Below are positions 1 through 18,187 of a DNA stretch of 28,567 nt, in pieces. Each line of letters begins with the position of its first letter. The stretch's first letter is position 1. The DNA lies in IMG/VR virus record IMGVR_UViG_3300018073_000020, positions 1 to 28,567 of that record. The stretch is one strand, 5' to 3'. A program made the translations under genes and the position numbers. The notes below the pieces were generated by a model. The model saw only the letters and a program-made list of their open reading frames with translations, had not been told where the DNA came from and did no database searches. This DNA comes from a virus (taxonomy: Duplodnaviria; Caudoviricetes).

Positions 1-42
1 GGCGGGGCGGGCGGAGCGGAGCGGGAGCGGGAGCGGAGCCGG
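1..42. repeat. G-rich short tandem repeat (GGAGC/GGGAGC units)
   Basis: ggcggggcgggcggagcggagcgggagcgggagcggagccgg read directly at the window edge. Confidence 0.7.
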
Positions 43-168
43 ATGATCAGGGCGTGACACCGGTGACCAGGCGATGATCAGGCATGCGTGGGGTGATCGG
101 GGATCATGAGGGGTGGCCAGGGATCGCGAGGGATCATTAGGCCAGACTAGTGAAGACCCGTGTACTCG

Positions 169-177
169 TGGTATAGT
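169..177 (+). promoter_or_regulatory. Extended -10 promoter element TGGTATAGT
   Basis: TGn-TANNNT consensus ~60 nt upstream of ATG 236; the same TGGTANNNT form occurs at 6606 (+) and 13431 (-). Confidence 0.6.
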
Positions 178-235
178 GGTGCCTAGCGGGGCCGGGGAGG
201 CCGGGCCCCCGGCAAGATCACGAGAGGATCTGATC

Positions 236-718
236 ATGAGCGAGCAGCCCACCGCCACCCCCCAGGCCAGCACCGTCGACACCCTGCGCACCGCACTCCC
301 GGCCAGCCTGAACACCAGCACGATCTACGCGCTGGCCACCCTGGTCGACTGGAAGAGCGCCACCCTCGACACCCTGCACCCGGCCACCCGCCCGGCCCTG
401 GAGTCCGGCGCCGTGCAGGCCGTGTGGATCGTCGAGACCGACTCGTTCGAGATCGGCAACTCCGACCTTGACAACATCCACTCCATGGTCGGGGTGTACG
501 CCAGCCTGGAGATCGCGGTGGCCGACGTGTGGCGCAAGATCGTGGCCGGGGACCGGATCTTCAACCCGGTGTTCGGTGAGCACGTCGTGGCCACCGTGCT
601 CGTGCCCACCCCCGACAACAGCGCAGCGGCCGTGCCCTACGGCTGGGCCTCCACCGATGACAGCGCCGATGACAGCGCCGTGGCCCCGCACGGGCTGTCC
701 ACCGGATGGGACGCGTGA
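236..718 (+). CDS. Hypothetical phage protein (160 aa)
   Basis: ATG 236 follows CGAGAGGATC; strong GC3 codon bias; trimmed from ORF 113..718. Confidence 0.8.
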   Translation: MSEQPTATPQASTVDTLRTALPASLNTSTIYALATLVDWKSATLDTLHPATRPALESGAVQAVWIVETDSFEIGNSDLDNIHSMVGVYASLEIAVADVWRKIVAGDRIFNPVFGEHVVATVLVPTPDNSAAAVPYGWASTDDSADDSAVAPHGLSTGWDA

Positions 719-719
719 C

Positions 720-893
720 ATGCGGATCATCGGACTGCTCGCCATCGTGTTCCTGATCATGATGCTGGTCGGGCGCATCCTCGGCCGCGACGCACTGCTG
801 TTCATCTCCGTGACCGCCAACATCATCGTGCTCGGGATGAAACTCCGGATCTGGATCTCCGACCTGATCGCCCGCTCCCGAGAGGACGTCTGA
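720..893 (+). CDS. Small membrane protein (57 aa, two hydrophobic segments)
   Basis: MRIIGLLAIVFLIMMLVG...LLFISVTANIIVLG; starts 1 nt after the upstream stop. Confidence 0.7.
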   Translation: MRIIGLLAIVFLIMMLVGRILGRDALLFISVTANIIVLGMKLRIWISDLIARSREDV

Positions 894-894
894 C

Positions 895-1326
895 ATGGCC
901 CGCAGCACCCGTTCCAGCACCGACCCCGTCGTGTGGCTGTTCATCACCGGCATCGAAGAGGACCGGCACGTCCGTTCCGTGCACGCCACCCGCGACAGCG
1001 CCTGCGCCGAACTGTGCGACCTGGCCATGCGTGGCCAGCAACTGATCAGCCCCCGCATCGAGCGCAAGGTGATCAGTGGGGCCGAGCCGATCCGCTCCGA
1101 CCAGGTCGATCAAGTGGCCGCGGTGATCAAGGCGTATCGCGGGCTGGCTTCCGCGGGCAAATCCGACATGACCGGCCGGGCCAGCCTGCGCCCACTGCGC
1201 GAAGCCCTGGACGCGCTGGCCTACCCGATGGCCGTGCCCGACCCGGATGCGCCCTACCCGGTGCGCCGACCCGATCCCGACCCCGACGGGTGGACCGAAC
1301 CCGTGCCGCACCCCGGGAAAGGCTGA
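895..1326 (+). CDS. Hypothetical protein (143 aa)
   Basis: RBS GAGAGGA upstream; tightly packed; GC3 bias. Confidence 0.75.
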   Translation: MARSTRSSTDPVVWLFITGIEEDRHVRSVHATRDSACAELCDLAMRGQQLISPRIERKVISGAEPIRSDQVDQVAAVIKAYRGLASAGKSDMTGRASLRPLREALDALAYPMAVPDPDAPYPVRRPDPDPDGWTEPVPHPGKG

Positions 1327-1328
1327 TC

Positions 1329-1490
1329 ATGGGCTTCTCCCTGGGACCCGGCAAACCCATCCGGCGCACCACCCGTGAGGGTCGCTGGTCCCTGACGTGG
1401 ACCGAACGCCCGCCGTGGCCCGACCGCCTGGACAAGATCACCTTTCGATTCTGGGGCAAGCGTTACCCGATCTTTAACCGGAGGCTCTGA
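1329..1490 (+). CDS. Small basic hypothetical protein (53 aa)
   Basis: TGATCATG stop/start junctions at both ends; MGFSLGPGKPIRR... Confidence 0.6.
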   Translation: MGFSLGPGKPIRRTTREGRWSLTWTERPPWPDRLDKITFRFWGKRYPIFNRRL

Positions 1491-1492
1491 TC

Positions 1493-1852
1493 ATGGACGG
1501 CCTGGCCGAACGCCTGATCGCCTGCGACGCCGACCCGTGGGGCGAAGGCGCCATCCGCTACCCGCCCGAACTCGCCCGATCAGGAGACCGCCCGATGCCG
1601 CGCCGCAACACGATCACGATCCACGCCTACCCGACCAAGGGCGCCGACACCATCACGTTGATCGATTGCCCGCAGCATGAGGCCGAGCGCGACGCCGATC
1701 TCGACCCGCGGCCCGGGGTGCGGATGATCGTGCAACCCGAGGGACAGCTCAAGGCCACCCGGCTCACCCTCGACCCGCGGGCGGTGCGCCAACTCCGGGC
1801 CGCGCTCAACCGCTGGGAGCACGGCAAGGATCTGGCCGAGCCGAGGAACTGA
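1493..1852 (+). CDS. Hypothetical protein (alternative start 1595)
   Basis: ORF fills the gap; an AGGAG RBS precedes in-frame ATG 1595. Confidence 0.7.
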   Translation: MDGLAERLIACDADPWGEGAIRYPPELARSGDRPMPRRNTITIHAYPTKGADTITLIDCPQHEAERDADLDPRPGVRMIVQPEGQLKATRLTLDPRAVRQLRAALNRWEHGKDLAEPRN

Positions 1853-1857
1853 CCGCC

Positions 1858-2118
1858 ATGATCATCGTGCTGGTGGGGCTCGCGCTGTTCATCGGCGAGT
1901 CCCGCAAAACCCGCCGCATCCATGAGGCGCAGGCCAAACGGGCCCGTTACACCCGCGTCGACAAGTGCGGCGGCTGCAAGAAATCCCTGCTGGCCTGCAC
2001 CTGCGGGCAGACCCCCCAGAGCCCCACGTTCGCGGCTAACGGGCGCTTATGGTGCTCGCTGTGCTCATCGCTGTGGCGCGGCGGACACTGCGCCAACACC
2101 CGTTGCCGGGCCCACTAG
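1858..2118 (+). CDS. N-terminally anchored Cys-rich protein (86 aa)
   Basis: Hydrophobic N-terminus; CGGC, CTC, CSLC, C-x4-C-x2-H. Confidence 0.7.
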   Translation: MIIVLVGLALFIGESRKTRRIHEAQAKRARYTRVDKCGGCKKSLLACTCGQTPQSPTFAANGRLWCSLCSSLWRGGHCANTRCRAH

Positions 2119-2134
2119 CCGAGAGGATCACGTC

Positions 2135-3076
2135 ATGACCAAGATCGGAATTGCGGCGCTGATCACCGGTCTGGTGCTGCTCGGATTCGTGCGGGCCGTG
2201 CAAACGTTCGGCGCCCCACTCGTGATCGTCGTGCTGGTCGCCGGGCTGGCCATCCTGATCAAGGTGCGCAACGTGCACGCCGAAGGACACCAGGCGTCCG
2301 GCATCGACAAGATCAACCAGCCGGGGCGGGCCGTCACCGTCGGGGACCGCACCTCCCGATGGTGGGACACCGAACGCGAACTCGAACACCGACGCCACTC
2401 CTGGCTGTTGTCGCGCATCCTGCCCTACCGCGAAGTCCGGGTCGGCTCCCTCGACACCGCGCGGCGCCAACAGGCCAAACAACAGGCCGGTAAGCCGGTC
2501 CGGCCGATCGACTGGACAGCACCCAACCGCAACGGGGGCGGCTCGTTCGCCGGGGGCATGACCGCATCCGGCATGACCTACGACTGGTGCACGTGCTCCG
2601 AACAGGCCATGCCGTTGCTGTCCATGCCCGACGGATCCCAGCGCGCCAACCGCGGCGAAGAGACCTGCCTGTGCCAGTGCTCCGAATGCCGACCGAAGGG
2701 CCGCTACTACGACCAGGCCGAAGCCAAGATGATGCCGATCAAGCCCCGGCACTGGCGGGAACGCGAGATGGAACACGAGGTAGCGGTCAGCCTGGCCGAC
2801 AACCGGCGCCGCGCCGAGGTGGGCCGCGTCACCCGGCTGTGCCGCCTGGCCCGCGACTTCCGCAACGACCGGGCCGCCGACAAGCGGGACGAACAAGCCG
2901 CAGCGGCGGCCGGATGGGAGCACCCGAACGTGCGCCGGGCGCGGGGCGAGGAAGTCATCACCGACACCGATGAGTGGTACTACCGGCACGGGTTCCCGGG
3001 CGACGATGGGGACGACGACACCGACGACGACCGACCGACCGACCCGATCAACGCCCAACCGGGCGGACACGAATAA
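2135..3076 (+). CDS. Membrane protein with Cys-rich central segment (313 aa)
   Basis: ATG 2135 after CGAGAGGATC; two N-terminal TM segments; CTC...CLCQCSEC; acidic tail. Confidence 0.8.
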   Translation: MTKIGIAALITGLVLLGFVRAVQTFGAPLVIVVLVAGLAILIKVRNVHAEGHQASGIDKINQPGRAVTVGDRTSRWWDTERELEHRRHSWLLSRILPYREVRVGSLDTARRQQAKQQAGKPVRPIDWTAPNRNGGGSFAGGMTASGMTYDWCTCSEQAMPLLSMPDGSQRANRGEETCLCQCSECRPKGRYYDQAEAKMMPIKPRHWREREMEHEVAVSLADNRRRAEVGRVTRLCRLARDFRNDRAADKRDEQAAAAAGWEHPNVRRARGEEVITDTDEWYYRHGFPGDDGDDDTDDDRPTDPINAQPGGHE

Positions 3077-3092
3077 CCGAGAGGATCACCCG

Positions 3093-3986
3093 ATGGCTGA
3101 CACGATCAACATCACCCGTGAGTGCGGGCACTGCCACGCACCCAAGACGATCACCGTGAGTAGGACCGGATACCAGGCGTGGGACATGGGCCGGGGCGCG
3201 TTCGTGCAGGAAGCGTTCCCGGAGTTGAGCGCCGACGATCGGGAACTGTTGGTGTCCGGGATCTGCGGCCCGTGCTTCGATGCGATCATGGGCCCGGAGC
3301 CGGATGAGGACGAGGGACCCGGCGCGCTGATCATCGTGGCCGGGGACCCGTCGGACATCGAAGCGTTTGCACGGGCCGGGGGCTATGCGGGTGCGGAGCG
3401 GCCCCCCTCAGACCCCATGCGGGATGATGAGTCGACCCCGGTTGATCACGAACACCCCTGTTCACCGGACGCCAACCCGGGACCGGCCGGGGTCACCCTC
3501 ACCGACCTGGGCCCCGGATCGCTGCACGAGATCCAATCCCGGGTGTTGGCCGGGAAGACCCTGCAAGGCGAGGAAGCCACCCGCGGGCACCTGTCCGCGC
3601 CGCACACCGACTGGCCGCGCTGCGCCACCGTGCTGCCCACCATCACCTCCCCGCTGTTCTCCACGGAACCCAGCCTGTGCAACCGGCCCGCCACCTTGAT
3701 CGCCGGGTTCACCGCCGACTACCTGGACGCCTGCGGACACCACCGCTGCGACGACCCGATGTGCCCCATCGAGATGATCGGCTCCGATCCGGAGATCCGG
3801 GCGCAGGCCCTGGCCAACGTGATCCCGGTGTGCGGCATGCACCTGAACAAGTTGCGCATGGATGAGGACCGGTTCCGCCGCGACGTGCACCCCGACCTGT
3901 CGGCGGTGTTCCGGCTGGCCGTGATCGGCGTCGAGTCGTGCATCGGCACCGCGGCGCAAGTGTTCGATCTGCGGGGCGCGCAATGA
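3093..3986 (+). CDS. Two-domain putative Zn-binding protein (297 aa)
   Basis: ATG 3093 after CGAGAGGATC; N-domain CGHC...QEAFPELSADDRELLVSGICGPCFD resembles a common small phage domain; Cys/His-rich C-domain. Confidence 0.8.
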   Translation: MADTINITRECGHCHAPKTITVSRTGYQAWDMGRGAFVQEAFPELSADDRELLVSGICGPCFDAIMGPEPDEDEGPGALIIVAGDPSDIEAFARAGGYAGAERPPSDPMRDDESTPVDHEHPCSPDANPGPAGVTLTDLGPGSLHEIQSRVLAGKTLQGEEATRGHLSAPHTDWPRCATVLPTITSPLFSTEPSLCNRPATLIAGFTADYLDACGHHRCDDPMCPIEMIGSDPEIRAQALANVIPVCGMHLNKLRMDEDRFRRDVHPDLSAVFRLAVIGVESCIGTAAQVFDLRGAQ

Positions 3987-4540
3987 CCGACGATCCACGG
4001 CTGAGCGAAGCCTGGCGCGGGGAGCGGTGCTGGCTGATGGCATCGCCCCCGGGCCGGTCGGTGCCCGATGTGCTCGACGACCTGGACGGCATGCTCACCT
4101 ACTGCCGCCGGTTGCGGCTGACCCCGATGGTGGTCACCGACCCGCGCGGCGTGGTCGCCGACGACCCCGACGGGGAAGCGCTGGCCACCGCGCTGCACGA
4201 CCGGATGGGGGAGGCCCGATTGAGTGGGCTGGTCATGGGGTGGAACACCAAACCGGTCCGCAAGATCCGCTGGAAGATCAGCATGGGGTGGGGTTCGTCG
4301 CTGTGGTGCCGCGGTAAGGCGTTCAGCGGTCACCCCTACAAGCCCAAGATCACCTCTCGGGAGGCGCTGTTCTACTGGCTGCCCGACGGCGTGATCATCG
4401 ATCCGTGCGCGGCCGACGGACAGTTGATCATCCCGGCTTGGCGGGCCGGGCGCAACATCATGGCCGTGACCGACAAGGGTCCGGCGCTGTGCGTGGCCGG
4501 GCTCGGCCAGGGCATGCTCTTCGACCCGGCGCAGGGCTGA
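3983..4540 (+). CDS. Degenerate N6/N4 DNA methyltransferase-like protein (185 aa)
   Basis: VVTDPRG (cf. DPPY), GHPYKPK (cf. HPxxKP), GVIIDPCAADG...AWRAGR (cf. VLDPFxGSG...AxxxGR) in beta-class order; ATGA overlap with upstream gene. Confidence 0.5.
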   Translation: MTDDPRLSEAWRGERCWLMASPPGRSVPDVLDDLDGMLTYCRRLRLTPMVVTDPRGVVADDPDGEALATALHDRMGEARLSGLVMGWNTKPVRKIRWKISMGWGSSLWCRGKAFSGHPYKPKITSREALFYWLPDGVIIDPCAADGQLIIPAWRAGRNIMAVTDKGPALCVAGLGQGMLFDPAQG

Positions 4541-4542
4541 TC

Positions 4543-4680
4543 ATGACCGGGGCGATCGTACTGGCCGCGCTGCTCGCGCTCTGCGGCGTGTTGATCTGGG
4601 CTATCCGGCGGGACTACCGGCGGCTGCCCCCCGAAGTGCGCGCCCTACTTGATCACTGGACGCATCGCGACTTGGACTGA
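4543..4680 (+). CDS. Small single-TM protein (45 aa)
   Basis: MTGAIVLAALLALCGVLIWAIRR; TGATCATG junction. Confidence 0.65.
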   Translation: MTGAIVLAALLALCGVLIWAIRRDYRRLPPEVRALLDHWTHRDLD

Positions 4681-4736
4681 TCAACTGATTGATCAACCTC
4701 TCAAGATGAGACACATCCGGCGTGTAAACGGTCACC

Positions 4737-5027
4737 ATGCCGCGCATGGGCGCACCCGGATACATCGGGGCGATCGTCGCCGTGGCTGGCGCGTTGATTG
4801 CCGCGATCATCTGCACAGTGGCATGGATCATGCATCTCAAGCGCGCGTACCGGTGCCGCTGCGGACACTTCAAAAACGCGCACGAGCACTACCGAAGGGG
4901 GTCGGATTGCGGGCTCTGCGGATGCCCGCGCTTTCGACCCGTGATCAACCGCTCGGCGCGCGAAAGCCACCGGGCAACGCTGCGCTACGTGCAGCACGCA
5001 ACCGGCCAGTGGGTCCACACGACCTAA
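4737..5027 (+). CDS. Membrane-anchored Zn-finger protein (96 aa)
   Basis: TM helix then CRCGH...HEHYRRGSDCGLCGC, a motif familiar from small actinobacterial proteins. Confidence 0.75.
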   Translation: MPRMGAPGYIGAIVAVAGALIAAIICTVAWIMHLKRAYRCRCGHFKNAHEHYRRGSDCGLCGCPRFRPVINRSARESHRATLRYVQHATGQWVHTT

Positions 5028-5048
5028 CTCATAACCGAGAGGATCGCC

Positions 5049-5375
5049 ATGATGACCGCACTGCACTACGTGGGGCTGATCGGCATGTATGTGGAGTTCG
5101 AGCAACTGGACGGGGAGGAACCGATCATCGGCGGAGTGGTGCGCGCCGTGGCCGACCAGCCGCACGGCGCGGTACTGGTCACCTTCGAGAACGACCAGTG
5201 TTTGCTCATCGAGCGCGAGGCGTGCTGGGGGCTGCGCGTGTTCCGCCGGTCCCCATGGCTGATCAACCGCTACGGCGAGGCCGAGCACGCGGCAGCCGAT
5301 GCGGCGGCCACCACCTACGGCGATGAGCGCTACGGGCGGCCCCGGTGTGAGAGCAACGGCGCCGATGCCCAATAG
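5049..5375 (+). CDS. Hypothetical protein (108 aa)
   Basis: CGAGAGGATC at 5036; GC3 bias. Confidence 0.75.
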   Translation: MMTALHYVGLIGMYVEFEQLDGEEPIIGGVVRAVADQPHGAVLVTFENDQCLLIEREACWGLRVFRRSPWLINRYGEAEHAAADAAATTYGDERYGRPRCESNGADAQ

Positions 5376-5745
5376 ATCCTCGCCCAACCGGTTGATCATC
5401 AAGCTGCCGATGTGGTGGGCCACGCTGGGCGCGATCGGCGCCGACCCGTTGGTGCACGAGCCGTACGCCCGCGCCGCGCGCAAGGCCGTGCAGCTCTACG
5501 TAGATCTCGCGGTGGAGATCGAGACCACCCGGCTGGCTGTGCGGGCGTGTCACCCGCGGGTACTCGATGAGCGCCACGAGTGGCCCGGTGTCTGCTCGAC
5601 GTGCTGGGACCCCACCCGTGACGATCACTACGTGTGGCCGTGCCCGACGTTGCGCGCGGCCGGGGTGGATGAGGAGGGCCATCAGGAACGGGCCCAGCGG
5701 CCGGGTGGGTATGAGCCACACATAGTTCCGCCGGACGAGTCCTAG
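5365..5745 (+). CDS. Hypothetical protein with H..CxxC..WPCPT motif (126 aa)
   Basis: CSTCWD...WPCPTLRA motif recurrent in actinophage proteins; 11-nt overlap with upstream gene. Confidence 0.7.
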   Translation: MPNRSSPNRLIIKLPMWWATLGAIGADPLVHEPYARAARKAVQLYVDLAVEIETTRLAVRACHPRVLDERHEWPGVCSTCWDPTRDDHYVWPCPTLRAAGVDEEGHQERAQRPGGYEPHIVPPDES

Positions 5746-5803
5746 CCCAGCTACCCTGCACGCGGCCACCCCGGGCGTTTACACGCTAAGGAGGGGCGCA
5801 CCG

Positions 5804-6076
5804 ATGGCTGATCATGCACACCGGCAAGGGTTCGATCCGGGGCCGTGGGGTTCCGGCGGATGGATAGAGGCGCACTCCCGGCGTTACCGCATGTGGCACG
5901 TGCGGGCGGGCGCTCAGCTTTCGACACCCGATCTCGATGCGGTCACCCCGTACGCGTTGCGCAGCGGCCGACTGATCGACGTCTCGTGGGGGATCATCGT
6001 CTGTGATCGGGTGTCCCCCCGCGGCACCATGCACATCCTTGATCACGTACCTCAGCTCCGGGTGGCCACCTACTAG
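5804..6076 (+). CDS. Hypothetical protein (90 aa)
   Basis: AAGGAGG RBS at 5788-5794. Confidence 0.7.
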   Translation: MADHAHRQGFDPGPWGSGGWIEAHSRRYRMWHVRAGAQLSTPDLDAVTPYALRSGRLIDVSWGIIVCDRVSPRGTMHILDHVPQLRVATY

Positions 6077-6092
6077 GAGAGGGGATCCGATC

Positions 6093-6545
6093 ATGACCGA
6101 CTACCCGGACGGCTACAGCGAACGCTATCCACCCGGTGGGCCGTGGCCGCACTACGGCGACCCGCGGGACGGCACCTACGGCAACGTCCCGATCATCGAC
6201 GGCACCAACGTGCGCCCGGACGTGCTCACCGACCGGGCCCAACTGGTGGCGCTGCGGGCGTGGGTGCTGCAAGAGCGCGACCACGCGTTGCGGATCACCA
6301 TCGGCAGTGGGGCGGCGTCGTCGCTCCAGTTCGCCATCGCCATGTCCGACGTGGCCGCGGTGCTGTGGGAGTGCATCACGAAACTGCCGCCGGACGAACG
6401 GCTCAAGATCCTGGGGGAGCGGCCGAGCCCCCACAAGCGTCCGCGTCCGATGCGTCGGTTGACCCGCAACCCGCTGCCGTCCATGATCGATGAAACCGAC
6501 CCGGCGTTGTCGAGCCTGGACGATTGCGCGCCGCACCACTACTAG
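6093..6545 (+). CDS. Hypothetical protein (150 aa)
   Basis: AGGAGAGG RBS; ATG 6093 in ORF 6003..6545. Confidence 0.75.
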   Translation: MTDYPDGYSERYPPGGPWPHYGDPRDGTYGNVPIIDGTNVRPDVLTDRAQLVALRAWVLQERDHALRITIGSGAASSLQFAIAMSDVAAVLWECITKLPPDERLKILGERPSPHKRPRPMRRLTRNPLPSMIDETDPALSSLDDCAPHHY

Positions 6546-6605
6546 TGCACAGCAAGTACGCCTAGAGTCATCACACCCCGAATCCCGTAGGTAGTACCGA
6601 CGGTA

Positions 6606-6614
6606 TGGTATGCT
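6606..6614 (+). promoter_or_regulatory. Extended -10 promoter element TGGTATGCT
   Basis: In a 115-nt intergenic gap; followed by a CCGGGG..CCCCGG hairpin and the same 17-mer RBS block as at 220-236. Confidence 0.6.
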
Positions 6615-6660
6615 GGTGTCTCCGGGGCACGTCACCCCGGACGAGAGGATCTGATCACCG

Positions 6661-6939
6661 ATGACCGCCCCGGCCCTGCCCCGGATCGCTCACTGTGGCT
6701 CTTGCCCGGCCACCTTCCCCCGCGACGCCGCGCACTGCGCGAGCTGTCACGCCACGTTCGCCGATGTGGAGCTGTTCGCCGCGCACCGTCGGCCCACCCG
6801 CACCCGCTCCCTGTGTAAACGGCCGGGGAGTCTGGGCCTGGTCGAGCGTGCACACATCTGGCACCTTGCGCCCATGGCGCCCGCCGACCGTTTGGCGCGC
6901 TACCGGGCCATCCGGGCGCAGAACGAGCACGAGAGCTGA
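6661..6939 (+). CDS. FDXHR-like phage Zn-binding protein (92 aa)
   Basis: HCGSC...AHCASCHATF...FAAHR...C pattern. Confidence 0.7.
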   Translation: MTAPALPRIAHCGSCPATFPRDAAHCASCHATFADVELFAAHRRPTRTRSLCKRPGSLGLVERAHIWHLAPMAPADRLARYRAIRAQNEHES

Positions 6940-6987
6940 ACGGCCGTAACGCACGTCCCGATGGAACCGAACGAGAGGATGCACACC

Positions 6988-7272
6988 ATGGGCGGAACGC
7001 TCAAGGCCCTGACCGAAGACGCCGAAGCCGATGTGATCTTGCATTATCTGCGCGGCTGCGATGCCCAGGACCGGGCCGCGCGGCTGACCGCGGAGAACGT
7101 GCACGTGATCGTCAGTCTCCTCGATCATCTGTTCACGGCTACCGCGCTGGTACCCGCGGTGCGCGGCGCATTGATCGATCTGCTGAGCGTGGCCCGTGCG
7201 GACAAGTTGGCCGGGCTGCTCGCGCAGATCGATCCCGAGGGTGACATCGGCCGCCTGGCCAAGGTGGCGTGA
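6988..7272 (+). CDS. Hypothetical helical protein (94 aa)
   Basis: CGAGAGGATG at 6972 positions ATG 6988. Confidence 0.7.
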   Translation: MGGTLKALTEDAEADVILHYLRGCDAQDRAARLTAENVHVIVSLLDHLFTATALVPAVRGALIDLLSVARADKLAGLLAQIDPEGDIGRLAKVA

Positions 7273-7649
7273 TCATGAGGGGTGACGGTGGGCCTGACCC
7301 GCGGCGGCTCGATCGAGATGACTCAACCGAGCCCACCGATCACCCCGATACAGATCCGGCGCTGCCGGTGGATCCTGCACCGTGGCCGGACCGTCTACGG
7401 CTCCCTGAGCTACGGTTACTTGATCATCGTCGGCCCGGGGCGGCGCTACTGGCGGCCTACCAGAAACGGCGCGGTGACCCTGGCCCGACGGATCCGCAGC
7501 CAGACGATCGAGATCTAGGCCCGACCGCGCGGTGCCCGCTGTGCCATGAGCGCATCCGGGTGGAACTGGTCGACGTCGAGATCGGGCACGTCTGGCACGG
7601 CGTGCACTGCGGGTGGGGCCACGAGTTCGGCTCGGCGGACCTGCCATGA
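7269..7649 (+). CDS. Possible ORF; only the C-terminal CPLC..VDVEIG..HC segment looks coding
   Basis: GTGA/ATGA overlaps at both ends, but poor codon bias before ~7520. Confidence 0.3.
   Translation: MIMRGDGGPDPRRLDRDDSTEPTDHPDTDPALPVDPAPWPDRLRLPELRLLDHRRPGAALLAAYQKRRGDPGPTDPQPDDRDLGPTARCPLCHERIRVELVDVEIGHVWHGVHCGWGHEFGSADLP
7318..7518 (+). CDS. Small basic hypothetical protein (start 7318 or 7282)
   Basis: This frame carries the GC3 bias across 7318-7518. Confidence 0.55.
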   Translation: MTQPSPPITPIQIRRCRWILHRGRTVYGSLSYGYLIIVGPGRRYWRPTRNGAVTLARRIRSQTIEI

Positions 7650-7759
7650 TCGGGTTCGTGGTGGCCTGGTCGTTGGTGGTGTTCGCCGGGCTGTGCGTGT
7701 ACCTGGCGGTACTGGTCGCCACCGCGCCACCGCATGAGCGGGGACCGGAGGACCGATGA
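7646..7759 (+). CDS. Single-TM microprotein (37 aa)
   Basis: MIGFVVAWSLVVFAGLCVYLAVLVATAPPHERGPEDR, hand-translated; ATGA overlaps. Confidence 0.6.
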   Translation: MIGFVVAWSLVVFAGLCVYLAVLVATAPPHERGPEDR

Positions 7760-7857
7760 CGTTCAGCATCGTGTGGATCATCCTGGCCATCCTGGCCGGG
7801 TTGGCCATCCTGGCCGTGATCAGTTGGTTCATGCGGGATCGCGACGGTCCGCTGTGA
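7756..7857 (+). CDS. Single-TM microprotein (33 aa)
   Basis: MTFSIVWIILAILAGLAILAVISWFMRDRDGPL; GGAGG RBS; ATGA overlap. Confidence 0.65.
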   Translation: MTFSIVWIILAILAGLAILAVISWFMRDRDGPL

Positions 7858-7935
7858 GCTTGACCGGCTACTGGTCGTTGGTCGCCATCGTCGTGGTGTC
7901 CGTGGCGCCCATGGCCATGGGCTATACCGAAGCGC

Positions 7936-8070
7936 ATGGAAATACTGATCTTGTGCGTGTTCTGCGTTGCCTGCGGCGTGGTGTTGGGCTGGTCGGCCCG
8001 CGCCGCGCTGGCCCTGCGGGACGCCACCGAACCCAGACGAGAGGATCACTACCGAGATGACCAGTGCTAG
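7936..8070 (+). CDS. Single-TM microprotein (44 aa)
   Basis: MEILILCVFCVACGVVLGWSARAALALRDATEPRREDHYRDDQC, hand-translated; competes with overlapping ORF 7854..8060. Confidence 0.45.
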   Translation: MEILILCVFCVACGVVLGWSARAALALRDATEPRREDHYRDDQC

Positions 8071-8272
8071 CGGCACCCATCCCTACTGTGCGGTAACCGT
8101 GGTGCTCGTCCCGCTCGATCCGGACGGCAAGCCACAGATGGAGCGCACCGTGACCCTGTCCGGCGTGGCCGGGCCGATCGTCACCGACCAGGAAGAGGTG
8201 ATGATCCGGTGGCGGCCCGATGATGAGACCGGGGTCCGGTTCACCCTCACCGGGTCGGCGGTGCTGATATGA
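8057..8272 (+). CDS. Hypothetical protein (71 aa)
   Basis: CGAGAGGATC at 8038; ATGA overlap with next gene. Confidence 0.7.
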   Translation: MTSASGTHPYCAVTVVLVPLDPDGKPQMERTVTLSGVAGPIVTDQEEVMIRWRPDDETGVRFTLTGSAVLI

Positions 8273-8799
8273 GTATCTCCAGTGCCCAGGCGCGCGCCAA
8301 CGTGGCGCGGGGCAAAGAGGCCGAACGCCAAGCCGCCCGGTTCCTGACCGTGGTACTCGGCGCCAAGATCGTCCGGGCGATCCGGACCGGGCACCGCGGC
8401 ACCGCCGACCCGGGGGATCTGGCCAAGCTCGACGGCATGGTGTGTTCGGTGAAGGATTCCGAGCGGGTCTACATCGAGCAGTGGATGTATGAGCTTGATC
8501 AAATGGACGGGCTGGACACCGACGTCCGATTCTTGATCCACAAGTGGCGTCAGCACCCGGTGGTCCGCTGGCACGTCTACGTGCGGGCCGGGATCCTCGT
8601 CCCGCTGTTGACCATTGACCGGCAGGACGAGGGCGCCCGTGCGCTGATCGACTTCTGGGCGGTCAAGATCCTGTGGAAGGACACCGACCCGCTGTTCGAT
8701 CAAGTGTTGCGCACGCCGGTCCGGCTTGATCTCGGCGCGTGGGCCACCATCCTGTTGCACGCCGGATACGGTGATCCGATACCGGAGGAGGCTCTGTAA
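8269..8799 (+). CDS. Holliday junction resolvase-like PD-(D/E)XK nuclease
   Basis: ARGKEAERQAARFL...DPGDL...CSVKD follows the G..ER...GD...(E)xK layout; E of ExK replaced by S. Confidence 0.6.
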   Translation: MSISSAQARANVARGKEAERQAARFLTVVLGAKIVRAIRTGHRGTADPGDLAKLDGMVCSVKDSERVYIEQWMYELDQMDGLDTDVRFLIHKWRQHPVVRWHVYVRAGILVPLLTIDRQDEGARALIDFWAVKILWKDTDPLFDQVLRTPVRLDLGAWATILLHAGYGDPIPEEAL

Positions 8800-8996
8800 T
8801 GGGTGCGGTCGAAGAGATCCACGAACGTGAGCGGATGCTGATCATCCGGCTGGCGCCGCTGATCCTGCGCTACCTGCGCGACAAAGAGGGCGGCGCGGAG
8901 ACCGAACCGCCCGCCGAGCGCGAATGGGGCCAGGTCTCGTTCAAGGTCATGATCAGGTCCGCGCCGGTCACGGTCACCCTCAAGATCGACCCGTGA
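8799..8996 (+). CDS. Hypothetical protein (65 aa)
   Basis: GGAGG RBS; TAATG overlap. Confidence 0.7.
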   Translation: MGAVEEIHERERMLIIRLAPLILRYLRDKEGGAETEPPAEREWGQVSFKVMIRSAPVTVTLKIDP

Positions 8997-9178
8997 TCAT
9001 CCGGCTGCGGGATCTCGTGCCCGCTGGTCACCGCATGTGCTGCCTGTGCTTCGAAGCCATCCCGGTTGATCAACTGTGGGTGGACAACGATGGCATGCAG
9101 TGGGACATGTGCGTGCCGTGCAAGGCGGCCGACGATGAAGCGGTCCGGCTACGTGATCAAGCCACCTGCGTAGAATAG
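8993..9178 (+). CDS. Small Zn-finger protein (61 aa)
   Basis: CCLC...CVPC; GTGA overlap. Confidence 0.65.
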   Translation: MIIRLRDLVPAGHRMCCLCFEAIPVDQLWVDNDGMQWDMCVPCKAADDEAVRLRDQATCVE

Positions 9179-9183
9179 AACGT

Positions 9184-9314
9184 GTCGGGGGTGCTCGCCG
9201 GTCTCGCCTGTTGACGACACCCGGGTCCCGCGGCGTGAGACGCGTGACGTCTCGCCCCCGACCTCATGGCCCCACTGCGGGAAAGACTTAGATCCTCTCG
9301 CCCGCGGTGGGGCC
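9184..9314 (+). ncRNA. Candidate structured small RNA with an anti-RBS loop
   Basis: TAGAAT -10 at 9171-9176; GTCGGGGG/CCCCCGAC stem (9184-9191/9255-9262) enclosing a GAGACG/CGTCTC hairpin; 14-bp stem 9268-9281/9301-9314 whose loop ends in GATCCTCTCG. Confidence 0.55.
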
Positions 9315-9415
9315 GCCTGGCGTTTAGGGCCATTCGGACAACCTCATCGTGACCCACACGTCTTAGCCTGTGTAAACGCCGCGTGTGGCTGCGCGGTCCT
9401 ACGTGAGGTGACCCC

Positions 9416-9970
9416 ATGCATCGCGCCGTCCTGTTCGTGTCCCTGATCGTGGCCGCACTACTGGCCTTGATCGCCACCGCCACCCCGGCCGCTGCGCAGG
9501 TGACCCCGGCCGCGGTAGCGTCGCAGGCTGCGGCCTGCCCGCACGTCAACTGGGGGTCCCTGCCCAAGGTGAGCGGCCTGGCCCGTCCAGACGAGGCGAT
9601 CACCGCCGTGCGGGTGGGTTCGCACCCGTGCTTCGCGCGGCTGGTCGTGCAGACCGATGGCCGGGCGGCCCCGCGGTTCGATATCCGCTATGTCGGCCAG
9701 ATCATCGAGGACGGATCCGGGCGGGTGCTGTTCGTGCCCGGCGCGGCCAAGCTCCAGTTGGTGATCTTTGCCCAAGGCCACAACGCGGCCGGGGATCGCT
9801 CGTTCGTGCTGCCGCGCATCGGCGGTGAAACGATCAAGGGCGCGGTGTTCGCCGGTGACTTCGAAGGCCAGGTGACGTTGGGCCTGGGCCTGCGCGGCCG
9901 TCTGCCGTTCCGGGTGTTCACCCTGACCAACCCGCCGCGGGTGGTGCTCGACGTCGCCCGGCATTGGTAG
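9416..9970 (+). CDS. Secreted AMIN-like domain protein (host-like actinobacterial family)
   Basis: Signal peptide ending AAA-Q; VRVGSHPCFARLVV, EDGSG, GDFEGQVTLGLG, PFRVFTLTNPPRVVLDVA motifs; GAGGTGA RBS. Confidence 0.8.
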   Translation: MHRAVLFVSLIVAALLALIATATPAAAQVTPAAVASQAAACPHVNWGSLPKVSGLARPDEAITAVRVGSHPCFARLVVQTDGRAAPRFDIRYVGQIIEDGSGRVLFVPGAAKLQLVIFAQGHNAAGDRSFVLPRIGGETIKGAVFAGDFEGQVTLGLGLRGRLPFRVFTLTNPPRVVLDVARHW

Positions 9971-10335: not shown

Positions 10336-10662
10336 TCACACCGTGATCGAGTCGAGCACATGCGCGAGCCACCGCGTATTGAACGCCACCACCACCGACA
10401 CCGACCGGTGCCGCGGATCCGGCAGGGCCACCGTGGCCGACCACACCTTCGGCTCCGGAGGTGGCGACCAATCCTGCGCGGGCGGCCACCACAAGTTGAC
10501 CTCCGCCGTGTAGTGCAGGAACCGGGTGGCGTGATCAAGAGTGGGGAAGTGCGCCCGGATCTGGTGATCACTCAGGCAGCGCGACACCTGTCCGGTCGCC
10601 CCGCTGGCGTCGAGCATCTCCCGGGCCGTCGAGCGGGCCGCGCGCCGCACCGGACGCATCAC
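10336..10662 (-). CDS. Hypothetical protein (108 aa)
   Basis: GTGA overlap with the stop of the PrnB-like gene. Confidence 0.7.
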   Translation of the reverse strand: MMRPVRRAARSTAREMLDASGATGQVSRCLSDHQIRAHFPTLDHATRFLHYTAEVNLWWPPAQDWSPPPEPKVWSATVALPDPRHRSVSVVVAFNTRWLAHVLDSITV

Positions 10663-11744
10663 CGACCCCGCAGCGCCGACACCCGGGCCCGCGCCTGGCG
10701 GGTGTAGTCCAACAGCGGCACGAACTGTGGCGCGGCTTGCATGCCCGAGCCCACGTCACCCGGTCGCAAGCCGAGGGTTTCCATCGCGAACCGTTGGTGC
10801 ACCGCCCGAAAGTCCCGGATCCGGCGGAGCAACCCGTCCAGGCCGTCCAGCACTGCGGGCCACGCGGCCCGACGTCGGCCCGGCGGGCACTGTTCGAGCG
10901 CATCCACCAACGACCGGCGGCCCAACGTGGCCACGATCCGCTCACCCAGGACACACACCGAACGTGGGCATTCCGCACGGAACGCCGCGGAGTAGTCGCG
11001 ATACCCGGCGTCGGTGCGAGCCACCCCGACCCCCCACAGCGCATGATCGAGCCAACTGTTCAAAAACTGTGCCCCGGTGGGCGCCCGGTAGATGCGTTCG
11101 CCGATGGTCAACGGGACCAGCCACGGGATCAACTCTGTGGAGAACACCCCCAGCGGCATCCGGCGGGCCATCAGGGCGGCCGAGGCCACCATCGGATCCC
11201 AGGCGGGCGCCAGTTCCTGCGCGGCCGATGCGGCGGCCCAGTCCGGGCGACGTCCCACCAACCAGTCCGCGATGATCGACAACCGGTGTAGCACGGTGAG
11301 CAGACCCCGACCGCCCGCGCGCAGCGCGTCGATCAACAGCACTTCGGCGTCGAGCCGGGTCAGGGTGCGCAGCCGTGGACCTTCCGGGTTGAACGGCCCG
11401 TAGAGATCATTATCGCTGCGCGGCATCCCCTGCCGCACCCGGCCCAGGTGGATCAACGCGGCTTCCAGTCCGTTGATCTTCTCCCAGGCGCCGGGCACCC
11501 GGCGGGCCAGCACGCACAGCGGCGGATCGACGTCGCGCAACATGGCCATGGCGATCGGCACGTCGGCCCGGTCGCGTCCGACCGCGGACATCACCGGCAC
11601 CGCCCCGCGCAGCACTGTGATCAACTCTTGGGGTGGTCGGATGATCACCGGGGTGGGGTCGGCGTACCAGTTGTCCAACCGCAGCGGATCAAGATCGGTG
11701 GGGTCGGGGGCCAGGGTCGGGGTGAGCAGTAGCGGCCCGGTCAT
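10659..11744 (-). CDS. PrnB/IDO-family heme-dependent tryptophan-type oxygenase (361 aa)
   Basis: Colinear PrnB-like motifs DPL, AMLRDV, GLE..L..L....PR, FNP....RTLT....E, VF..EL.P...P..IG...Y..P, LDHALWG, FRAVH, GSG, LL..T..AR.RV; start 11744 chosen from the ATGA overlap. Confidence 0.8.
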   Translation of the reverse strand: MTGPLLLTPTLAPDPTDLDPLRLDNWYADPTPVIIRPPQELITVLRGAVPVMSAVGRDRADVPIAMAMLRDVDPPLCVLARRVPGAWEKINGLEAALIHLGRVRQGMPRSDNDLYGPFNPEGPRLRTLTRLDAEVLLIDALRAGGRGLLTVLHRLSIIADWLVGRRPDWAAASAAQELAPAWDPMVASAALMARRMPLGVFSTELIPWLVPLTIGERIYRAPTGAQFLNSWLDHALWGVGVARTDAGYRDYSAAFRAECPRSVCVLGERIVATLGRRSLVDALEQCPPGRRRAAWPAVLDGLDGLLRRIRDFRAVHQRFAMETLGLRPGDVGSGMQAAPQFVPLLDYTRQARARVSALRGR

Positions 11745-11995
11745 GCGCGGACCAAACCGGTGGCGATGATCGCCCCAGGCAACAGGTAACAGGTGTCGTG
11801 ACAGGACTCGATGGTCATGGTGGCCCGGCTTCCGTTCGGGCCGATCACGGTCACATAGCCCGGCGTGCGGCACCACTCCTGGGGACTCTCGACGCCGATC
11901 ACCGCGTTGTGCGGGTAGGTCGGCACCCAGTGCCCGCGCATCAGGCGTTCACCGGTGGGCAGGTCGGGCCGGTTGGTGATCAGGTTTCCGGTCAT
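11741..11995 (-). CDS. Hypothetical protein (84 aa)
   Basis: GGAGAGGATC RBS 7 nt upstream; first gene of the leftward operon. Confidence 0.75.
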   Translation of the reverse strand: MTGNLITNRPDLPTGERLMRGHWVPTYPHNAVIGVESPQEWCRTPGYVTVIGPNGSRATMTIESCHDTCYLLPGAIIATGLVRA

Positions 11996-12216
11996 GGGGG
12001 GTGATCCTCTCCAGTTGCTGGCCGCCCCACCCTAACATCGGTGGACGGGCAGTACGCTCTACCCGATCAGGCGTGTAAACGGTCCCGACCAGCCAAACAC
12101 ACCGCGGCCCGGCGTATCAGAAACGTGCGCGGAAACCTCATGTCAAGGGCTCGATCCGTGCGCGGTCAACCGGTAGAGATGCACCGGGGGGTTCGACCCC
12201 TACCGAGGAGAAGATC

Positions 12217-12606: not shown

Positions 12607-13383
12607 TCACCCGTTGATCGGGTCTGCGTCGATCGCGGTCACCATGTCGTGCAGGTGGCGCGGGCACGTCGGGTTCGGGCACACTGGGCGGGCCACCGCG
12701 ATCCACGAGCGGGCCACCCGCATCGTGTAGCCGCAACCGCCATCGGTACCCGAGCACCATGCCTTGATCTGGCGGGCCCGCTGCGGGGCCGGGCCCACGT
12801 AGCCGCGCTCGATCATCCCGCCACCGACCGGCACCGGGGCACCGGCGGGCACGATCGCGGTGCTGCGCTGCACGTCCAACACGCTGTGCGGGTAGGCGCC
12901 CAGCTCAGCCTCTGCCATCAGCATGAGTTCCATCTCGAACGCCGGGCCGGGCAGCATTTCGGTGGGCTTGCCCTCCAGACCCAGGGCCTCACCGAACGCG
13001 GCGAACACCCGGTCGTGGCCGTGGTCGCAGTCGAACAGCACGTGCAGCATCTCGTGGATCATGATGCCGAGCACGGTGGACGCGTGCGCGACCTCCGGGG
13101 AGATGAACATGTGGTTGACCTTGTCGGCGGACCGCTCGGCGCGCCACGTCTGGCCGACGATGATCTCGTTCTCGCGCTTGGCACCCCAGCCGAAGCCCAC
13201 CGAGATGTGGATCGTTTCGGGCATCGTGTAGACGGCGATCCCGGGCAGCGTCTTGCCGGTGGCCTCCGCGGCCGTGTTGACGATCTCGGCCAGTTCGTCG
13301 AACTTGGGACGGAGCAGCGCGTAGGCGGCCATCAGCCACTGCTCGCGGGTGGCGTACTTAGGGGCGCTGGTCGGGTTGCTCAT
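12607..13383 (-). CDS. SprT-like zinc metalloprotease with C-terminal Zn ribbon
   Basis: TREQWL, FISP, HEMLH (HEXXH), GH...F...GLEG, then C..CGY..R..W...P.C; GGAGG RBS. Confidence 0.8.
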   Translation of the reverse strand: MSNPTSAPKYATREQWLMAAYALLRPKFDELAEIVNTAAEATGKTLPGIAVYTMPETIHISVGFGWGAKRENEIIVGQTWRAERSADKVNHMFISPEVAHASTVLGIMIHEMLHVLFDCDHGHDRVFAAFGEALGLEGKPTEMLPGPAFEMELMLMAEAELGAYPHSVLDVQRSTAIVPAGAPVPVGGGMIERGYVGPAPQRARQIKAWCSGTDGGCGYTMRVARSWIAVARPVCPNPTCPRHLHDMVTAIDADPING

Positions 13384-13422
13384 CGGGTCCTCCGGGTCTC
13401 TGCCTTGCCTGTTGACACCTTG

Positions 13423-13431
13423 AGTCTACCA
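13423..13431 (-). promoter_or_regulatory. Extended -10 promoter element TGGTAGACT
   Basis: 40 nt upstream of ATG 13383; a CGTGTAAACG site lies just upstream (13435-13444). Confidence 0.6.
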
Positions 13432-17556: not shown

Positions 17557-18187
17557 TCATGTAGATCCGGCGTACGCGCTCGGCGACGAACAGCGTCCGA
17601 CCACCGTCCGCACGGTGGCGCTGGCCGACCTGGAGTTGCGCGACGACGTACCCGAGGGCGAACCGCACTTCCGCGGTTGGGCCTGCCGGGCCGATGTGCG
17701 CGACGCCTACGGCACCACCTTTCAGGCGGGCGCCTGGGCCGCGGGCGGGCTGGACGCGCAGCCGTACGCGCTGTGTTGGATGCACGACCCGTGGGTCCCG
17801 GTGGGTGCGTTCACCGCGGCCGACCGCAGCGACGGGCTGTGGATCGAGGGCCGCTGGGACCAGACCCGTGACGGCCGGGACGCCCGGACCAAGGCGCGCA
17901 CGAGTGCCCCGGGGCTGTCCGTCGGCTTCCGGAGCGTGATCTTCGACGAGGAGGATCCGGAACTGATCATCGCCGCGCAGTTGGTCGAGGTCTCCCAGAT
18001 CACCGCGCGGATGGCGGCCGTGCCCGGCGCCAAGTTCGAAGAGGCGCGCAGCGCCCCGACCGATCGAGAGGATCAACGCCGAGAGGATCAACAGACCCCG
18101 GCGGGTTGGCCTGCGTCCCGCCGGTCCTTACTCGTGGCCCGTGCACGCCTGCGGACCACTCAGTTGATCACACCAGGAAGGATCTGA
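17540..18187 (+). CDS. HK97-type prohead protease
   Basis: FRGWA...DAYG..F..GA, WMHD..PVG, GLWIEG, GLSVGF, LVEVS; ATG 17540 after GAGAGGGA. Confidence 0.9.
   Translation: MVTRSDHVDPAYALGDEQRPTTVRTVALADLELRDDVPEGEPHFRGWACRADVRDAYGTTFQAGAWAAGGLDAQPYALCWMHDPWVPVGAFTAADRSDGLWIEGRWDQTRDGRDARTKARTSAPGLSVGFRSVIFDEEDPELIIAAQLVEVSQITARMAAVPGAKFEEARSAPTDREDQRREDQQTPAGWPASRRSLLVARARLRTTQLITPGRI

Follow-up and report, generated by a model that had tools for sequence, protein, structure and literature searches.

Why should a phage that places one motif ahead of many of its non-structural genes carry a single copy of that motif in reverse, in the loop of a long hairpin? The question arises in an uncultured phage analysed here as a whole virus record of 28,567 nt (G000, or W; hereafter the window), which is about 70% complete and has a G+C content of ~67.5%. 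Positions 1 to 9178 are occupied by small rightward genes, most of them unknown; next come a mixed block and the terminase, portal, protease, capsid, and tail genes; the gene set came from a simple caller of our own, with one gene's start shifted to 8057. Judging from the G+C content and from the relatives of its SprT-like protein, which occur in Streptomyces, in Saccharopolyspora, and in phages of Arthrobacter and Microbacterium, the host is probably an actinobacterium. The nearest annotated terminase is 45% identical, so the phage collection holds no cultured close relative, and a blastn search of the RNA region against annotated phages returned no matches. We propose that the locus probably encodes a trans-acting RNA that blocks ribosome binding at the tags of an early, non-structural regulon.

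The tag and the tagged genes

Exact copies of the tag CGAGAGGATC precede the ATG codons at 236, 2135, 3093, 5049, 6661, and 8057 by 5, 5, 5, 3, 9, and 9 nt, respectively, and 9-nt matches lie ahead of 6988 and the leftward gene 11995(-), as a preliminary description of this DNA had reported. Exact forward copies number 8 in the window, compared with a mean of 0.26 (maximum 2) in 300 order-4 Markov simulations, a model that allows for the GATC excess of this genome. The same description had taken the reversed copy to be the only exact one not placed as a ribosome-binding site (RBS), which was mistaken: two further exact copies, at 18065 and 18080, lie inside the head-protease ORF. One such protease-ORF copy is found in G002 and in L005, and none in G003 or G001. 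In a folding test, the protease-gene copies were not seen to hold the capsid RBS shut. The tandem pair directly precedes a GC-rich hairpin that is kept in G001 and G002.

The claim that structural genes are largely spared was borne out, as an exact loop complement of at least 9 nt precedes 8 of 28 called genes left of terS and none of the 18 from terS on (Fisher p = 0.015). Counting against the model, the two protease-ORF copies sit in a late gene, and in G002 a gene located after the portal has a 9-nt match. Pairing of the tag with 16S rRNA is weak (score 5.8 vs. about 9.5–11.8 for most GGAGG-type sites), and tagged genes often sit after gaps, where they need fresh initiation. The tag of gene 2135 is shared with G003 and is missing from G001 and G002.

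Table 1. Positions in the window of the predicted RNA, the tags, and associated motifs.
Feature	Position	Strand	Remark
Tag, gene 236	221..230	+	Downstream of TG-TATAGT -10-like site (172–177)
8-nt partial tag, gene 895	879..886	+	
Tag, gene 2135	2120..2129	+	Exact
Tag, gene 3093	3078..3087	+	Exact
Tag, gene 5049	5036..5045	+	Exact
Tag, gene 6661 (phage FDXHR zinc-binding domain)	6642..6651	+	Downstream of TG-TATGCT -10-like site (6609–6614)
9-nt tag, gene 6988	6972..6980	+	
Tag, gene 8057	8038..8047	+	Exact
Conserved GATCA..CCACC block	9155..9166	+	Directly upstream of -10 hexamer; possible activator site
-10-like hexamer TAGAAT	9171..9176	+	6–7 nt ahead of first stem
Candidate structured RNA, ~135 nt	9183..9318	+	Putative 5' end, placed from the -10; without U-tail terminator
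Domain 1, three-way junction	9184..9262	+	Predicted fold: closing stem, irregular stem with TGTTGAC, variable hairpin
Possible second seed GCCTGTTGAC, domain 1	9206..9215	+	Complement of first 10 nt of SprT-like gene leader
Domain 2, final hairpin (14-bp stem, 19-nt loop region)	9268..9314	+	Predicted fold
Anti-tag seed TTAGATCCTCTCG	9288..9300	+	Complement of tag; predicted pairing
Second -10-like hexamer TAGCCT, then GTGTAAAC repeat	9364..9377	+	Before AMIN-like gene 9416–9970
9-nt tag, leftward gene 11995	12003..12011	-	Tag orientation follows gene's strand
GTCAACAGGC at predicted +1 of SprT-like gene (12607–13383)	13407..13416	-	6 nt after TAGACT (13423–13428)
Two tandem exact tag copies, 3' end of head-protease ORF	18065..18089	+	110–125 nt ahead of major capsid start
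GTGTAAAC/GTTTACAC copies	4722, 5777, 6813, 9370, 10295, 12073, 13436, 15701, 17166, 19691, 22036, 22744, 25408		

The predicted RNA and its hairpin

The RNA element had been placed in a 237-nt gap opening with TAGAAT. The hexamer was located correctly; the gap itself runs from 9179 to 9415, and the upstream ORF, with its stop at 9176–9178, reaches into the hexamer with its final codons. Relatives carry TAGACT or TAGGAT at this position. The GATCA..CCACC block upstream of it is present in the window, G002, G003/G004, G001, and L154 and absent from L150. A sigma-70 promoter scan of the window, which requires a -35 element, left the TAGAAT element uncalled, and a terminator scan called none for the RNA element. 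The internal TTGAC was considered as a -35 and rejected, no -10 being found at 17 nt in the sequences inspected.

Folding of the RNA region gave a z-score of -3.78, with none of 200 shuffles as good. The final hairpin was confirmed as a 14-bp stem (9268–9281/9301–9314) with one G-U pair and a 19-nt loop (9282–9300). This loop holds as a 19-nt region; it is not predicted to be fully open, with an apical loop of 9 nt (9287–9295) placed above a weak helix of 3 bp and an internal loop of 2x2 nt. The 13-nt pairing described for genes 236 and 6661 is correct, and complementarity does end at the border between loop and stem, none of the six exact targets having the G that would extend it into the stem.

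Counting both strands, the window has just one hairpin with at least 14 stacked pairs and a loop of 10–25 nt, and the single reversed tag copy lies in it. Likewise, the plus strand of G001 has one hairpin of this class, and it holds the anti-tag of that phage. Among the 28,567 10-mer positions of the plus strand, just 12 sit in a loop closed by at least 14 pairs, and every one of them belongs to the hairpin at 9268–9314. A reversed copy arose in 7.7% of 300 order-4 Markov simulations, and the chance of one landing in such a loop is ~0.077 x 0.0004–0.0015.

Searched against Rfam, the window gave no matches at the gathering score and four weak, unrelated ones, far below threshold, when the threshold was lowered; ARAGORN found nothing. 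YUNR U-turn motifs are present in the loops and were set aside as too common to count as evidence. The conserved TAGCCT/TAGTCT hexamer ahead of the AMIN-like gene suggests that this gene has its own promoter, and therefore the RNA may be free-standing. The secreted-looking AMIN-like protein (PF24837) is encoded directly behind the RNA in G001–G004 and elsewhere in G006.

Conservation among homologues

A terminase search yielded 18 viral loci, of which four records (G001–G004) cover the RNA element. A search with the RusA-like neighbour yielded 12 metagenome loci, namely eight with the whole element, the window's own contig, one cut after the element's start, and two that stop short of it. The element homologues collapse to seven distinct sequences, six with the same tag and G001. 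One pattern scan of viral contigs gave a single unrelated match and another gave 112 matches, in which the homologues were the four known records only. An SprT-like protein search of genome contigs found 10 loci at 35–40% identity, none with the RNA, and our RNA model R1 detected no homologues in L011–L019, the Cluster K phage loci, or G006–G008.

In all seven distinct homologues a TANNNT hexamer stands 6–7 nt ahead of the first stem, and all of them have the invariant TGTTGAC of domain 1, a side hairpin that varies, and a long hairpin at the end. The loop core of 12 nt, TAGATCCTCTCG, is kept in all six same-tag sequences, as expected of a functional loop in the preliminary description, while in G001 the hairpin's place is taken by an unrelated stem of 19 bp. 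Covariation of stem pairs among the six same-tag sequences was not significant (89 of 500 shuffles scored as high), and RNAalifold on a MAFFT alignment of domain 1 revealed no two-sided change. The structural case rests on predicted folding energy, a symmetric pair insertion, and the unrelated stem of G001 at the same place. The plus strand is predicted to fold better than the minus strand by 15.3 (L154), 13.6 (G001), and 4.4 (L150) kcal/mol, the advantage being due to G-U pairs; L154 and G001 are the two most divergent members. Counting against an RNA, the two strands fold within 1 kcal/mol of each other in the other four of the seven homologues.

Covariation of loop and tag

G001 is a complete genome of 41,466 nt whose major capsid protein is 86% identical to that of the window, with a median identity of 67% over 35 matched genes. 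Neither strand of G001 contains GAGAGGATC; its loop ends in TTCGTATCCTCTG, and its tagged starts read about CAGAGGA-N-ACGA. To compare loops with sites, the AGAGGA core was held fixed and the eight flanking nucleotides were ranked among 65,536 choices, using 10 sites each for the window and G001 and counting every AGAGGA-core start, including poor ones. The window's loop ranked in the top 0.76% on its own 10 sites, the top 0.08% on the 9 sites of G002, and the top 0.9% on the 7 sites of G003, compared with 70% on the 10 sites of G001. Conversely, the G001 loop ranked in the top 0.04% on its own sites and at 27% on those of the window. Loop and tags have both been rewritten in G001 and still match, with cross-matches no better than chance; the covariation that had been named as a check is thus present, as one evolutionary switch between the same-tag group and G001.

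Four orthologous gene pairs (236, 3093, 5049, and 6988) are tagged in both phages with their flanks switched. The tagged genes of G001 include ERF, SSB, replication-initiator-like, and RusA-like genes; no integrase was found among the 29 G001 proteins scanned.

Accessibility-weighted pairing, calculated with our own approximation of IntaRNA, pointed in the same direction. With opening energies included, the loop was the best predicted site for all eight tagged genes of the window, and the native RNA outperformed the foreign one on 7 of 8 tagged genes in the window and 9 of 9 in G001. This energy test is noisy, because the G001 RNA reaches -7 kcal/mol on 19 of 46 window genes compared with 14 of 46 for the native RNA; the G001 loop is more open, and a tail gene of G001 reaches -10.6. 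When accessibility was left out, raw duplex energies separated the loops poorly.

A blind test and a third tag

A blind comparison of hairpin loops with gene starts ranked the window's hairpin first of 30 (8 sites; next 5). It was positive in two of the seven sequences entered, the window and G006; it missed the loops of G001 (central mismatch) and Anaya (bulged stem) and returned nothing in G007, L011, or AnnaSerena. In G006, a complete genome of 40,281 nt with a capsid protein 64% identical to that of the window, a 16-bp hairpin ranked first of 33, and its loop complements that phage's own tag, GAAGGGA. Within the 40,000 of 40,281 nt examined, GAAGGGA occurs 10 times. One copy is reversed and lies in the loop; the other nine stand shortly before an ATG or GTG, eight of these with an ORF of at least 35 codons.

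The G006 hairpin, one of 10 of such size in that genome, lies directly behind a plus-strand gene of a replication-like module, is non-homologous to the RNA of the window, and was seen in the G006 record only. A minus-strand ORF behind its loop (GC3 0.54) was rejected as the shadow of the plus-strand gene. GAAGGGA also stands before starts in more distant relatives (L011 1792–7811, L012 136, and G007). No reversed copy in a loop was found in the L011, L012, and G007 fragments; L011, a 12-kb fragment, has five tags and no reversed copy.

Cluster K mycobacteriophages

Tags of a similar kind, termed start-associated sequences (SAS), were described in 2011 in Cluster K mycobacteriophages, and in its accessible text that study leaves open whether their partner is an RNA or a protein (PMC3203893). 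The same text restricts SAS to the non-structural right arm and notes a single reversed copy, unlinked to any start, in four K1 phages (PMC3203893). SAS are also reported from Microbacterium Cluster EF (PMC7302621). Their role is called unknown in a 2024 paper that speculates on a protein partner (PMC11373665) and unverified in a 2025 paper, which gives K4 and K8 as having few SAS or none (PMC12699233). In the accessible parts of these four papers (PMC3203893, PMC7302621, PMC11373665, and PMC12699233) the reversed copy is not linked to an RNA, and the main text of the 188-genome Cluster K survey, as far as accessible, does not contain 'antisense', 'hairpin', or 'reverse' (PMC12699233).

In Anaya, Adephagia, Peanam, and Mdavu, the reversed SAS forms the apical loop of a long hairpin, with an unpaired probability of 0.97–0.99. 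The K1 hairpin sits about 100 nt after a TAGACT hexamer, and the K1 element matches 193 phage records. In Adephagia the loop lies between genes 92 and 93, where, according to the accessible text of PMC11373665, late transcription starts. Thyatira and Psycho carry the same loop in a different stem of 14–15 bp at the left end, between the tRNA-Trp and terminase genes. An open anti-SAS loop is therefore found in 6 of the 12 Cluster K phages examined, at two genome positions and in different stems. Amohnition has a generic pyrimidine loop only, and an anti-SAS loop was absent from the stretches retrieved for Pixie, TM4, and Nergal (3 kb left, 14–16 kb right) and for Marshawn and KiSi (3 kb and about 0.55 kb), as well as from AnnaSerena, whose genome was covered in full. 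In their retrieved stretches, Pixie, TM4, and Nergal retain 8–12 SAS cores. SAS can apparently persist without the loop, which counts against the proposed RNA.

The Kratiovirus anti-SAS hairpins lie at L184:~990–1040 and L185:~1055–1105, that of Psycho overlapping the annotated small terminase start. Across the Cluster K late-promoter region (L161:33760–33930 and homologues), TAGACT is followed by a palindrome of the GCACAACTGTGC type, which is invariant, and by a long hairpin, a layout kept in all 10 aligned Cluster K phages, even those without an anti-SAS loop.

The tag of the window resembles SAS in being an over-represented, asymmetric motif with a partial Shine-Dalgarno (SD) sequence, 3–9 nt before non-structural starts and in one orientation, and in having its single reversed copy in a hairpin loop. 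It differs in sequence (CGAGAGGATC vs. the Cluster K consensus GGGATAGGAGCCC or the EF consensus) and belongs to a different phage group, and the RNAs are non-homologous, R1 finding nothing in the K loci. Nor was the 17-bp inverted repeat of the ESAS type seen in the window, where an unsystematic look found a GTCAACA run after some -10 hexamers and no left arm.

Proposed mechanism and alternative explanations

In the proposed mechanism, transcription would begin from TAGAAT on the plus strand and yield a small RNA of the phage or, alternatively, a longer transcript whose 5' part is stable. The hairpin loop would pair in trans with the RBS tag of eight non-structural genes, presumably beginning at the 9-nt apical loop and spreading through the weak upper helix. 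Once AGAGGA was covered, the 30S subunit would be kept off, and coupled downstream genes would fall silent too. Keeping the 30S subunit off by covering the SD is textbook sRNA action. Because the duplex covers the SD, a block of initiation is the most likely outcome of pairing, and since the hairpin tip and the tags change together in a related phage, the RNA likely switches the genes off as a group. The timing would be middle or late, given the position at the early/late border and the analogy with Adephagia, with the location in G006 making a middle stage possible. As for the anti-RBS idea of the preliminary description, a kept and covarying loop, an unsupported minus-strand ORF, and largely spared structural genes speak for it, and its remaining steps are predictions.

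The tag could instead be no more than the RBS that this phage prefers, with the hairpin serving as a terminator, a leader, or a structure for processing; the match would then be incidental, arising for example through copying or from a generic anti-SD loop directed at host mRNAs. AGAGGA can indeed pair with the 16S 3' end, the tagged genes' need for fresh initiation would fit, the G006 hairpin occupies a terminator-like place behind its replication-module gene, and the K loop contains CCUCCU, a plain anti-SD that is all Amohnition retains. We nevertheless regard this as rather unlikely: the covarying flanks are those that do not pair with 16S, a reversed copy in that loop has the low chance given above, three different tags each have their own complement in a loop, and the K loop was retained after a move to another stem and place. 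Still more doubtful is that the reversed copy serves as the RBS of a translated minus-strand ORF, an idea we find hardly credible even though a 148-codon ORF (9157–9603) overlaps the element. That ORF has no family match, the nearest start after the copy opens a 3-codon ORF about 17 nt from the core, and the open minus-strand frames differ in G002 and G001, the latter without an exact tag there.

A phage protein that binds the tag as RNA or DNA, with the reversed copy as an extra site or a minus-strand decoy, is an unlikely explanation for which there is nevertheless precedent, CsrB displaying CsrA sites in its loops. Repeats in this clade that resemble protein sites also turn over in concert (GTGTAAAC 13 vs. 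0 and GTGTACAC 0 vs. 23 copies in the window and G001, respectively); because the GTGTAAAC repeat switches genome-wide in G001, concerted motif turnover is possible without an RNA partner, and it is the position of the loop that does the rest. A protein would also fit the K phages that keep SAS where no loop was found, the equal folding of the minus strand in four of seven homologues, and the partner speculated on in the accessible text of PMC11373665. Against it, G-U pairs stabilise the plus strand by 14–15 kcal/mol in L154 and G001, and the conserved -10 indicates plus-strand transcription. Decoy RNAs usually carry several site copies, and those of the CsrB/RsmZ type show them on the transcribed strand; the window has a single copy, and the strand bearing it is the one that folds less well in the divergent members. 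A DNA site, in turn, would need neither the SD position, nor orientation with the gene's strand, nor a hairpin loop.

Pairing could also activate, the RNA acting as a phage-supplied anti-Shine-Dalgarno adaptor or stabilising the mRNA. Such a role would suit the weak pairing of the tags with 16S (5.8 vs. about 9.5–11.8), would employ the invariant core of domain 1, which is superfluous in our main model, and could make the copies 110–125 nt ahead of the capsid start an activating site. It is highly unlikely, as the duplex covers the SD itself, the K analogue belongs to a late transcript and SAS occur solely in the non-structural right arm, folding did not show the protease-gene copies closing off the capsid RBS, and literature searches found no precedent. 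In its extreme form, an RNA that supplies the anti-Shine-Dalgarno turning the tagged genes on, this idea seems distinctly far-fetched.

Relation to known phage and bacterial RNAs

A close mechanistic parallel to a silencing RNA is the c4 antisense RNA of phages P1 and P7, a structured RNA whose loops, according to the accessible text of PMC12197685, pair near an RBS of the phage's own mRNA and block translation. As in c4, the antisense sequence of the window lies in a predicted loop and complements RBS-proximal targets in the phage's own mRNA. Unlike c4, which controls one antirepressor mRNA, the candidate RNA has 8–9 dispersed target genes on both strands, and it has no Rfam match. The P4 CI RNA is grouped with the c4-type phage antisense RNAs. 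Among bacterial multi-target sRNAs, RNAIII, RsaE, and 6C pair a C-rich loop with the SD region of many mRNAs; these read generic host SDs, in contrast to the phage-specific sequence seen here, which changes with the loop. StxS resembles our candidate in being a short base-pairing RNA from the late-promoter region of an Stx phage and differs, as far as the accessible text goes, in being Hfq-bound and in targeting stx1AB and host rpoS in place of a shared early-gene tag (PMC7547250).

The preliminary description knew of no equivalent, which needs qualifying, as the tags are of the same kind as the published SAS and a loop that acts against an RBS is known from P1/P7 c4; the point holds insofar as c4 has a single target. 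In the literature searched, which took in few subscription papers, we found no description of a phage RNA that recognises an RBS tag common to several genes of the phage itself. Pairing as a mechanism is already known; what is new is a private barcode that covaries. Extending the proposal, actinophages may repeatedly have evolved a barcoded translational regulon, each lineage giving its early genes a private tag at the RBS and encoding a single RNA loop to read it, with tag and loop changing in step. Such an RNA would be the missing partner of SAS (in K1 and K5 at least), and that of the window would have a further seed directed at the 5' ends of additional transcripts, a tentative view that we hold to be somewhat less probable than its denial. 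It would offer a concrete answer to what reads the Cluster K SAS, a question standing since 2011, and Adephagia in M. smegmatis is a cultured system. Changes of stage in phage infection are for the most part ascribed to proteins that regulate transcription, and an RNA that silences barcoded early genes at the ribosome would add control at another level. Non-cross-reacting tag/loop pairs taken from nature would also provide orthogonal switches of translation for actinobacteria.

A possible second seed, a second repeat, and minor observations

Domain 1 of the RNA may hold a second seed. Its complement, GTCAACAGGC, occurs once per record, in the leader of the SprT-like gene and 6–8 nt after a -10-like hexamer, a layout common to the window, G002–G004, L154, and L157. 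In G001 the equivalent seed is GCTTGTTGAC, and two leaders carry GTCAACAAGC in the same layout. Pairing of this seed is predicted in G001 (-13.0 and -11.6) and not in the window. A second seed acting on GTCAACARGC leaders is thus a possible, weaker add-on to the anti-tag RNA in our model. A half-site of a DNA operator is a fair alternative to it, as the -10 of the Cluster K ESAS promoters is followed by a run of similar sequence.

The repeat GTGTAAAC/GTTTACAC occurs 13 times in the window, in either orientation, many copies lying in gaps just before early and structural genes or beside -10-like hexamers. The repeat has the look of an operator to which a dimeric phage protein would bind. In G001 the palindrome GTGTACAC occurs 23 times and GTGTAAAC is absent, and the window has none of GTGTACAC. 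A small HTH protein is encoded by G001.

The leftward gene 10659–11876 (-), of 361–405 aa, has a weak, sub-threshold PrnB match (PF08933, E 9e-5) and is missing from the matching region of the G001–G004 gene calls. GATC is ~4.9-fold above expectation in the window and 3.7–4.8-fold in close relatives, and many genes of the window have TGATC-ATG starts with a 1–5-nt gap.
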